Assembly: GCA_003452935.1 (NCBI GenBank)
Contig: DMMY01000016.1
Coordinates: 142,009 to 206,008, forward strand
DNA length: 64,000 bases
Reading direction: 5' to 3'
Source of the DNA: Elusimicrobiota bacterium
GTDB taxonomy: Bacteria > Elusimicrobiota > Elusimicrobia > UBA1565 > UBA9628
Below the pieces are notes generated by a model, which did no database searches, was not told the DNA's origin, and saw only the letters and a program-made list of their open reading frames with translations. Below, one piece after another: positions 1 to 954 of this stretch; position 1 is the first letter of the stretch, and each line of letters begins with the position of its first letter. Made by a program: the position numbers and the translations under genes.

Positions 1-20
1 CCCTCAAGGGGGGCCTTCAG

Positions 21-45
21 GGTTCGGCGCCTTCGGCGCCGAACC
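21..45. other. Perfect GC-rich hairpin: 11-bp stem ggttcggcgcc/ggcgccgaacc with a 3-nt loop
   Basis: Read directly: 21-31 is the exact reverse complement of 35-45. No U-tract follows on either strand. Confidence 0.8.
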
Positions 46-49
46 GCGA

Positions 50-79
50 AACAACAACAACAACAACAACAACAACAAC
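50..79. repeat. (AAC)10 trinucleotide microsatellite
   Basis: Ten uninterrupted aac units counted base by base. All three forward frames are open across it (poly-Q, poly-N or poly-T depending on frame). Confidence 0.9.
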
Positions 80-99
80 GGCACGGCCCCCAACGGCGC

Positions 100-124
100 G
101 GGCGCCCCCCGCGGGGGGGCGCCC
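100..124. other. Second perfect GC hairpin: stem gggcgcccccc/ggggggcgccc with a 3-nt loop
   Basis: 100-110 is the reverse complement of 114-124. It lies 18 nt upstream of the first ATG of the permease ORF. Confidence 0.75.
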
Positions 125-141
125 GTGGCGCGGCATCTTCG

Positions 142-954
142 ATGCCGCGCGCGCTAACGGCCATGAAAAGATCGCGCGGCCTCCTTGCCTACTGCGCGGG
201 ACTCTACGGGTTCCTCTATCTGCCCCTGGCGGTCATGGTAGCCTTTTCCTTCAACGACGCGCGACGCAACGTGGCGTGGAAAGGGTTCACCCTCAAGTGG
301 TACGCAAGCCTGTTCCACAACGCGGAGCTCGCCGGCTCGGTGGCCACAACCCTGGAACTGGCCGTGGTCTCAAGCCTCATCGCGGCCATCATGGGGATGC
401 TCGCCAGTTACGCCATGACCCGCCACGCGCCCTTCCGCGGCCGGGGGCTTTACGGCGCGCTTTTAAACGCCCCCTTGATGATGCCCGAGATCGTCATGGG
501 CGTGGGCCTGCTCTCCTTCTTCTCCCGCGTGGGAGTGCCGCTCAATTTCTGGAGCCTGGCCTGCGCGCACGCGCTCATCGCCCTGCCCTACACCGTGGGC
601 TCGATCCGGGCGCGGCTGCTGTCCCTCAAGGAATCCAATCTCGAGGACGCGGCCATGGACCTGGGCGCGACCGAATGGCAGGCTTTTTGCCGCATCACCC
701 TGCCCCTGGCCCGGCCCGCCGTGCTTTCGGGGGCGCTGTTGGCCTTCACCGTGAGCTTCGAGGATTTCGTGACCAGCTTCTTCATCGCCGGCATCGGCAT
801 CGTGACCATGCCCATCAAGGTCTACTCCATGATGAAGTTCGGCGTCACCCCGGAAATCAACGCCCTGGCCTCCTGCCTGCTGGCCCTGACCGTGGCCTTC
901 CTGCTCGCGGACCGATTTCTCAAGCGCCGCTCTCGCCCGGCGCGCAGGGTCTAG
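142..954 (+). CDS. ABC transporter permease, spermidine/putrescine PotC-like
   Basis: Polytopic membrane protein with an EAA-loop region (LEDAAMDLGATEWQAFCRITLPLARPAVLSGALLAF). The MKRSRGLLAY start typical of PotC is at 163; a frame-2 stop at 155-157 would end an upstream gene 5 nt before it. Confidence 0.75.
   Translation: MPRALTAMKRSRGLLAYCAGLYGFLYLPLAVMVAFSFNDARRNVAWKGFTLKWYASLFHNAELAGSVATTLELAVVSSLIAAIMGMLASYAMTRHAPFRGRGLYGALLNAPLMMPEIVMGVGLLSFFSRVGVPLNFWSLACAHALIALPYTVGSIRARLLSLKESNLEDAAMDLGATEWQAFCRITLPLARPAVLSGALLAFTVSFEDFVTSFFIAGIGIVTMPIKVYSMMKFGVTPEINALASCLLALTVAFLLADRFLKRRSRPARRV

Follow-up and report, generated by a model that had tools for sequence, protein, structure and literature searches.

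A hairpin-rich spacer with a polymorphic AAC microsatellite between two permease genes of an Elusimicrobia ABC-transporter operon

The Permease Operon and Its Spacer

The stretch of DNA analyzed here (the window) comprises 64,000 nucleotides (positions 142,009 to 206,008 of contig DMMY01000016.1, assembly GCA_003452935.1) from a groundwater species of Elusimicrobia, and its first 165 nt contain an AAC microsatellite flanked by GC-rich hairpins, immediately before a permease gene. These 165 nt represent the 3′ three-quarters of a spacer between two permease genes of an ATP-binding cassette (ABC) transporter operon, whose gene order is ATPase (ABC_tran/TOBE_2), binding protein (SBP_bac_1/8), permease, spacer, permease. 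The spacer is 196 nt long when it has 10 copies of AAC and 208 nt long when it has 14. Its 5′ end was obtained by extending the window with independent assemblies: an exact look-up of the downstream permease protein recovered eight loci (given L numbers below) from independent assemblies of the same organism, five of which include the ~10 kb upstream of the window, and in the extended sequence the TGA of the upstream permease gene lies 34 nt 5′ of window position 1. The lineage of the host was set by permease scans of genomes and metagenomes, which yielded ~60 related loci.

The downstream permease gene (163–954, plus strand) encodes a PotC-like protein with a BPD_transp_1 domain, as judged by its Pfam match and by the source records, in which it is called a spermidine/putrescine-type transporter permease. 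Its start has been called in two ways, either at ATG142, within the 3′ arm of hairpin H3 described below, to give 270 residues, or at ATG163, to give 263 residues. Relatives favor the latter, as the N-terminus MKRSRGLLAYC aligns with MKKPRGLLAYC, MKKARGLWAYC, and similar sequences in their permeases; ATG163 is the true start and ATG142 a spurious alternative.

Sigma-70-like promoter sites were found only before the ATPase gene and after the operon. Neither a promoter-like site nor a T-tailed terminator is present on the sense strand of the spacer, which is therefore most simply read as part of the operon mRNA. An antisense gene in the spacer found no support.

Four Hairpins in Two Modules

The original prediction described two perfect 11-bp GC hairpins, one on either side of the repeat. 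Perfect stems do occur at both places, one of them having 12 bp, but the spacer holds four such hairpins rather than two (H0 to H3), of which H3 and H0 had been missed, the latter being cut by the edge of the window. From 5′ to 3′, the spacer consists of the purine-rich, Shine-Dalgarno (SD)-rich end of the upstream gene with its GTGA, the leader CCCCCAACGG, H0, a linker of 1–2 nt, H1, (AAC)n, the leader CCCCCAACGG again (87–96, plus strand), H2, a TG linker, H3, TAA, 5 nt, and the ATG of the downstream permease. Hairpin H0 (TGAAGGCCCCCCT-CA-AGGGGGGCCTTCA) has a 5′ arm that starts 8 nt before the window and a 3′ part at 1–19; the complete hairpin, with 13-nt arms that were 100% complementary in a repeat search, is present in L001, L002, and L006–L008. 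H1 (21–45; GGTTCGGCGCC-TTC-GGCGCCGAACC) is a perfect 11-bp stem with the loop TTC that includes two tandem copies of TTCGGCGCC, and H2 (99–125) is a perfect 12-bp stem, CGGGCGCCCCCC/GGGGGGCGCCCG, with the loop GCG. They lie as close to the repeat as had been proposed, H1 ending 4 nt before the AAC tract and H2 beginning 19–20 nt after it. H3 (128–150; GCGCGGCATC-TTC-GATGCCGCGC) is a perfect 10-bp stem, also with the loop TTC. All four hairpins, like the leader copy, are given on the plus strand. Together they make up a pair of similar modules of two hairpins each, with (AAC)n between them, module A (H0 and H1) and module B (H2 and H3, begun by the second leader copy); H0 and H2 have C6/G6 stem tops, and H1 and H3 have TTC loops.

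These hairpins are not due to chance, because a search for perfect hairpins of at least 10 bp gave nine register matches in the window, representing five distinct hairpins, vs. 0–1 in Markov shuffles, and because the RNA fold z-score is −5.9 for window positions 1–175 and −7.4 for the whole spacer. No 34-nt fold in the window is more stable than H2 (−34.6 kcal/mol, vs. a mean of −6.4 ± 3.8), and the best 40-nt fold of the spacer reaches −39 kcal/mol, whereas 23 other intergenic regions span −2 to −21. The AAC tract is predicted to be a single-stranded linker between the hairpin pairs, and the region around ATG163 is predicted to be unstructured. The suggestion of a structured intercistronic element is thereby supported by the predicted fold, with a spacer inside the operon that looks transcribed and carries the strongest hairpins of the window.

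Protective intercistronic hairpins include the stem-loops of the puf operon. The malE-malF repetitive extragenic palindromic (REP) sequence and the 5′ structures of papBA likewise protect operon mRNAs, including those of ABC transporter operons (PMC5927463). The spacer resembles all of these in having stable GC stems with no U-tract between cistrons of one transcription unit, which are plausible barriers to exonucleases, and a single-stranded stretch that adjoins the structured ends; the structural feature that defines the class, a stable hairpin between cistrons of one transcript with no terminator function, is present. It differs in lying between two permease genes and not after the binding-protein gene, in being species-specific, and in combining four perfect stems with a polymorphic microsatellite, all known here from sequence. 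Unlike the malE-malF REP it is not part of a multi-copy REP family, as far as 74 kb of the genome shows.

An mRNA processing and stability element of the malE-malF, puf, and papBA type is one explanation for the spacer: an endonuclease would cut the AAC linker, with H0 and H1 shielding the 3′ end of the upstream segment and H2 and H3 the 5′ end of the downstream segment, and each segment would have its own half-life. An unstructured A-rich linker with a pair of hairpins on each side fits this idea, as do the extreme stability of the hairpins, the lack of a terminator or promoter, and the precedent of 3′-protective intergenic hairpins and RNase E-generated 5′ structures in operons, ABC systems among them (PMC5927463). 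However, the known ABC operons stabilize the cistron of the substrate-binding protein (PMC5927463), whereas here the hairpins separate two permeases that are needed 1:1. The element is also conserved in a single species, its AAC linker offers no U for the +2 preference of RNase E (PMC5927463), and the argument for it is built from sequence and a predicted fold. We consider this explanation rather unlikely.

Comparison with Rfam 15 brought no family to its gathering score. The best match was to 6C RNA (RF01066), on the minus strand over H1 and H0 (33.2 bits, E = 0.006, against a gathering score of 47). As in 6C RNA, two GC-rich hairpins directly abut one another, but the C-rich loops of 6C RNA are missing (deleted in the alignment), the C-runs of the spacer are in its stems, and the 6C family is actinobacterial; this match and those to alphavirus frameshift elements reflect generic GC hairpins. 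Nor are the hairpins intrinsic terminators, the sequence that follows each of H0–H3 being G/C-rich with no T run.

Polymorphism of the AAC Microsatellite

The microsatellite (50–79, plus strand) was identified by Tandem Repeats Finder as (AAC)10 with 100% matches, at the position and with the purity originally reported, and it is the only period-3 array with at least five copies in the 64 kb. The comparison of repeat length that had been proposed as a check, made here between assemblies, revealed variation: there are 10 copies in the window and in L002, and 14 in L001, L006 (GCA_003509925.1), L007, and L008. Because the flanks of the tract differ by 0–1 mismatches over 10.8 kb downstream and by none over 9.8 kb upstream, the microsatellite stands as the one polymorphism observed over ~20 kb and is probably hypermutable.

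Three Logan contigs start with exactly 30 nt of AAC, which is the k−1 signature of unitigs built with k = 31; for those samples they establish no more than a tract of over 30 nt or a mixed tract. We considered whether the 10-copy allele might be an assembly collapse. A collapse in MEGAHIT with k = 27, 37, ..., 127 (a series that we assumed from the k127 prefix of the contigs) would leave 27 or 39 nt, whereas the tract has 30, which makes a real 10-copy allele probable.

Simple-sequence-repeat contingency loci undergo phase variation through changes in repeat copy number. The spacer shares with them a perfect short tandem repeat whose copy number (10 vs. 14) differs between otherwise identical strains. 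Unlike them, it has a 3-nt unit that cannot toggle a frame, has no −35/−10 hexamers around the tract, and shows no evident on/off logic; a change in its length alters neither a reading frame nor the spacing of a promoter, as it would in a phase-variable switch.

An Open Reading Frame Through the Spacer

The frame in which the AAC tract is read as poly-Asn is open from a GTG codon that lies 37 nt before the window and overlaps the TGA of the upstream permease, to a TAA at 155–157 (in-window part 2–157, plus strand). This open reading frame (ORF), which we refer to as the relay ORF, has 64–68 codons and was called as a separate 68-aa gene in three assemblies (L006–L008). Its junctions with the permease genes are −4 nt at the start (GTGA) and +5 nt at the end (TAA to ATG163), and as the repeat unit is 3 nt, a change in copy number never breaks its frame.

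The original prediction had raised the possibility of a poly-N/Q/T tail of the upstream gene, with a stop at 155–157, 5 nt before the MKRS... start at 163. The stop is present, but the tail is not: in six independent assemblies the upstream permease has already ended in its TGA, and its frame would read the AAC tract as poly-Thr past that stop. That all three frames stay open across the tract is true and yet uninformative, as 85% of dinucleotide shuffles of the core are open in all three frames, and 74% of shuffles are open in the GTG frame. Being expected from base composition, the openness gives no evidence for a protein, and we dropped it as a sign of coding or of a relay. Extending the sequence upstream, which was to show which frame carries a gene, revealed a stop just upstream in only two of the three frames, with the Asn frame open as a separate ORF. 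The prediction had named stops in all frames upstream and an invariant repeat length as the outcome contrary to it; with two frames stopped and copy numbers of 10 and 14, the locus presents neither.

The GTG of the relay ORF is preceded by GGAGG at −6 and GGAG/GAGG at −14/−11, and none of the 20 genes examined has a richer SD context. An SD-like core is present in about half of the genes in this genome, and there is none within 30 nt upstream of ATG163. Directly 5′ of the window, at L006 9801–9833, a 7-bp stem between the SD-like GGGGGAG and CUCCCCC has the GUGA junction in its loop; as modeled, this stem could keep the relay start hidden for as long as the upstream gene goes untranslated.

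A HMMER search with the 68-aa relay peptide produced no match, not even to itself, and none of its variants with 7–17 Asn residues and M- or V-starts was indexed in an exact-sequence look-up. A protein-coding role for the spacer, whether as a poly-N/Q/T C-terminal tail of the upstream permease or as a genuine poly-Asn micro-protein, has in its favor that gene finders call the Asn frame as an ORF and that the stop falls where it was predicted. We regard such a role as exceedingly improbable, given that the upstream permease stops 96 nt before the tract, that the relay peptide has no homologue, is of low complexity, and is dictated by DNA palindromes, that the ORF is absent from a relative with a 90% identical permease, and that base composition accounts for the open frame. 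The spacer is neither a protein tail nor a member of a known RNA family.

The his, phe, and thr leaders are amino-acid leader-peptide attenuators, which combine a short ORF containing a run of identical codons with hairpins that follow it, upstream of a gene. The spacer has this arrangement too, but it has no terminator/antiterminator alternative, one weak alternative pairing being all that was found, and no U-tract; it also lies inside an operon, and its codon run is polymorphic in length. A regulatory sensor could take one of two forms: the 10–14 AAC codons would make the relay ORF and the downstream permease sensitive to the charging of Asn-tRNA, or the distal face of Hfq would bind (AAC)n as an (A-R-N)n site. 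Beyond the short ORF with its homopolymeric codon run beside hairpins, it can be said for a sensor that there is a weak Phe_leader-like Rfam match (21 bits, minus strand, far below threshold) and that AAC fits the A-R-N motif of the Hfq distal face (PMC3936774). However, the hairpins are independent perfect palindromes with no mutually exclusive alternatives (the single alternative pairing is 10/11) and no U-tract terminator, a copy number that drifts from 10 to 14 would be odd for a tuned sensor, and the spacer is not conserved in relatives, all of which make a sensor very improbable.

The Spacer Among Related Operons

Among Elusimicrobia relatives, ~45 have their two permease genes either overlapping by ATGA or GTGA or no more than 30 nt apart. 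There is no spacer in L169, whose permease is 90% identical, nor in L171 and L172, and among near relatives one is found only in L089/L170 and L010. In L089/L170 (88–91% identical) a 107-nt insert takes the place of the ancestral 20-nt tail, and 24 nt of this insert, at the same junction, are 96% identical with the H1 3′ arm and tail; the L089 version of H1 has a 5-nt bulge, whereas the window H1 is perfect. In L010 (83% identical) the stretch measures 99 nt and is less strongly structured (z = −2.7). Because ~45 relatives overlap here and only two near relatives have spacers, both shorter, the spacer is a recent, lineage-specific gain at an ancestrally coupled junction.

A continuous translational path has been kept in all three of the spacer-bearing species, each by a different route. 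The window species has the relay ORF, in L010 the downstream gene is lengthened by 99 nt in frame, starting from the GTGA, and in L089 an in-frame addition of 87 nt carries the upstream ORF to an ATGA. The rough joint chance of a kept path in three species is 0.01–0.09. At L089 2394–2504 and L170 582–692 the upstream permease has 36 extra codons that run through the hairpin-bearing insert to the ATGA; because the ancestral stop is lost, the annotated upstream permease of L089/L170 has a C-terminal extension that comes from palindromic DNA.

The age of the spacer also bears on the alternative that it is a neutral by-product of slippage and inverted duplication, with the downstream permease initiating independently at ATG163 and the relay ORF being incidental. 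Its absence from a relative as close as L169 indicates that it is young, and the perfect repeat and palindromes do look recent. Initiation at ATG163 alone would be unexceptional in a genome in which about half of the genes have no SD-like core, and the region around that codon is predicted to be unstructured; the open frames are expected by chance. What this alternative leaves without a reason is that the junction is tightly coupled in ~45 relatives, that a translational path continues through all three spacer-bearing species, that the ancestral SD and GTG are still intact, and that this is the only genome in which two-hairpin modules recur, a hint of some process or use. We think a neutral origin unlikely on balance, although it is an explanation to be taken seriously.

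A Proposed Local Origin of the Modules

Modules A and B align in register and have in common a 33-nt direct repeat (73% identical). The similarity of their non-redundant half-strings is above that of shuffles (P = 0.017). The differences between their stems are all paired, but were not counted as covariation because pairing is automatic for two independent perfect palindromes. The H3 5′ arm is 9/10 identical to permease codons 5–7, and this resemblance hints that the spacer was built from local sequence.

Template-switch (quasipalindrome) mutations create perfect hairpins (PMC8794818, PMC5941160), and a perfect stem can be made in a single event (PMC8794818). The spacer has features expected of such mutations, with de novo perfect inverted repeats, 3–4-nt loops, young sequence, and an H1 that is perfect in the window and bulged in L089. 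It is unlike the documented cases in that its four adjacent stems and microsatellite are unusually dense. As the stems are perfect with 3–4-nt loops, local duplication and replication template-switching may have given rise to the inverted repeats, and as the repeat is pure, replication slippage may have widened an AAC seed.

Alternatively, the spacer may have arrived as a palindromic mobile element, of the REP/REPIN, miniature inverted-repeat transposable element (MITE), or Rickettsia-palindromic-element type, which can sit in or between genes and stay translatable. The TGA at both of its ends (GTGA...ATGA) could be a target duplication of 3–4 bp, all frames are open, the L010 and L089 inserts are read in frame, and tandem two-hairpin modules occur three times in the 74 kb of this genome and not at all in ~778 kb of other loci. 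However, neither the spacer nor either half recurs in the window, in the 9.7 kb upstream of it (together 74 kb, ~2% of the genome), or in 160 other loci, whereas a REP, bacterial interspersed mosaic element (BIME), or REPIN family would have many extragenic copies of one conserved palindrome, and the three two-hairpin modules have no common sequence. A repeat search detected internal hairpins only and no terminal inverted repeats, which MITEs would have, and duplication of the stop/start motif accounts for its two terminal TGAs. The sequence that the spacer has in common with its own surroundings (permease codons 5–7) and with the same junction in L089 also speaks against an arrival from elsewhere. 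A mobile origin is not supported, given the lack both of other copies in ~2% of the genome and 160 loci and of terminal inverted repeats, and we regard it as improbable.

The recurrence of the modules is an observation in its own right. In the ~852 kb examined, abutting perfect hairpin pairs (at least 8 bp, with a gap of up to 6 nt) were found in this species only, three times. An energy scan that allowed imperfect stems gave −54.7, −45.1, and −44.5 kcal/mol per 56 nt for the three modules and nothing comparable among 24,938 GC-rich windows from other loci. The pair outside the spacer that lies in the window is at 11703–11750 (CCGACGGCC-TTC-GGCCGTCGG, TG, GCGCGCGCTCC-CTC-GGAGCGCGCGC), between minus-strand frr-like and uppS-like genes, and is followed on their sense strand by a T-run; the uppS-like gene was recognized from a Prenyltransf Pfam match, and the frr-like gene tentatively from its position. 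A covariance model of the two-hairpin module was attempted and dropped, as the modules have no common sequence and MAFFT left their first hairpins out of register. The enrichment of these modules in this genome is the most interesting loose end of our analysis.

Other Features of the Window and Related Loci

Several further features were also observed. A very stable fold (−38.8 kcal/mol per 56 nt) at 5233–5292 is located in the Pro/Ala-rich N-terminal coding region of the IF-2 gene. The strongest single hairpin among the sequences examined is a perfect 24-bp palindrome (−57.3 kcal/mol) at L068 4267–4322, in a locus from a metagenome-assembled genome of Opitutaceae; it has no relation to the spacer. 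Between ~18000 and ~58000 of the window, GC content falls from ~65% to 50–55% over a co-directional gene cluster that encodes a Wzy_C O-antigen-ligase-like protein, a radical SAM/SPASM enzyme, a BNR-repeat protein, two AsnB-type amidotransferases, and several proteins that match no Pfam family; the cluster looks like a surface-polysaccharide island and was possibly acquired horizontally. Upstream of the window by ~6–7.5 kb (L006 2362–4200), a minus-strand gene with no Pfam match has been called with four lengths (211, 537, 593, and 613 aa) despite identical DNA between assemblies.

A Model for the Permease Junction

The relay ORF recreates −4 and +5 junctions, each within the distance (~10 nt) that defines a coupled pair, which the direct permease-to-permease distance of 196–208 nt exceeds; we know of no described case of two coupled junctions in series via a bridging ORF of 64–68 codons filled with hairpins. 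The ancestral junction resembles pairs coupled at NTGA overlaps in being a classic −4 overlap between genes for subunits of a heteromeric complex. Termination-reinitiation coupling is described for such overlaps (PMC6728339, PMC10666635, PMC12548453); overlaps are enriched among genes for subunits of heteromeric complexes, and the coupling is nearly abolished at an intergenic distance of ~20 nt (PMC10666635; review PMC12548453). As coupling is almost gone at ~20 nt, a direct gap of 200 nt would abolish it and uncouple the permease subunits.

The explanation to which we give a tentative preference, short of full conviction, is that of a young spacer that grew in place at a former 4-nt GTGA overlap, is transcribed within the operon, and has its flanking genes coupled through the relay ORF. 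In the operon mRNA the spacer would fold into four very stable hairpins around an unstructured AAC linker. Ribosomes that finish the upstream permease would restart at the retained ancestral SD and GTG, which overlaps the stop by 4 nt, translate the relay ORF through the hairpins, reading the AAC repeat as poly-Asn, stop at the TAA 5 nt before the SD-less ATG163, and reinitiate there. As a side effect or a co-opted role, H0/H1 and H2/H3 may serve as 3′ and 5′ barriers to RNA decay, respectively.

Several considerations weigh against this explanation. Hairpins with predicted stabilities of −24 to −35 kcal/mol, four in succession, would slow translating ribosomes, and with about half of the genes lacking an SD sequence, ATG163 may initiate alone. 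The open relay frame is expected by composition (in 74% of shuffles) and is not evidence of selection. The argument from a kept path in three species is suggestive only, both at a P of ~0.01–0.09 and as the window species and L089 are not independent. The stems are invariant among strains, so they allow no true test of covariation, and the seemingly compensated differences between modules A and B are automatic. The template-switch origin is drawn from the perfection of the stems alone, and the proposal as a whole from sequence.

A bolder proposal, which we hold to be quite doubtful, is that the two-hairpin modules constitute a family defined by structure and variable in sequence, which would arise or spread in place by template switching, with relay ORFs rescuing the coupled pairs that they split. 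The in-frame (AAC)n tract, as a hypermutable run of Asn codons, would then be a population-level dial, or a throttle sensitive to Asn-tRNA, on the ratio of the permease subunits.

Implications

The locus explains the inconsistent annotation of this operon, in which a 68-aa "gene" has been called between the permeases and the downstream permease has been called as 263 or 270 aa. It also provides a rare case, visible in public metagenomes, of an uncultivated high-GC bacterium whose trinucleotide microsatellite is polymorphic. If the spacer is neutral debris, it would still be a clean illustration of slippage and inverted duplication, of limited wider importance. If our preferred explanation is true, the related loci would form a natural before/after series, from overlap through spacers of 99–107 nt to the full 200-nt version, which would show the de novo birth of a structured RNA spacer at a gene junction, and the coupling of the subunits of a membrane complex would have survived that birth by a relay ORF, by extension of the upstream gene, or by extension of the downstream gene.

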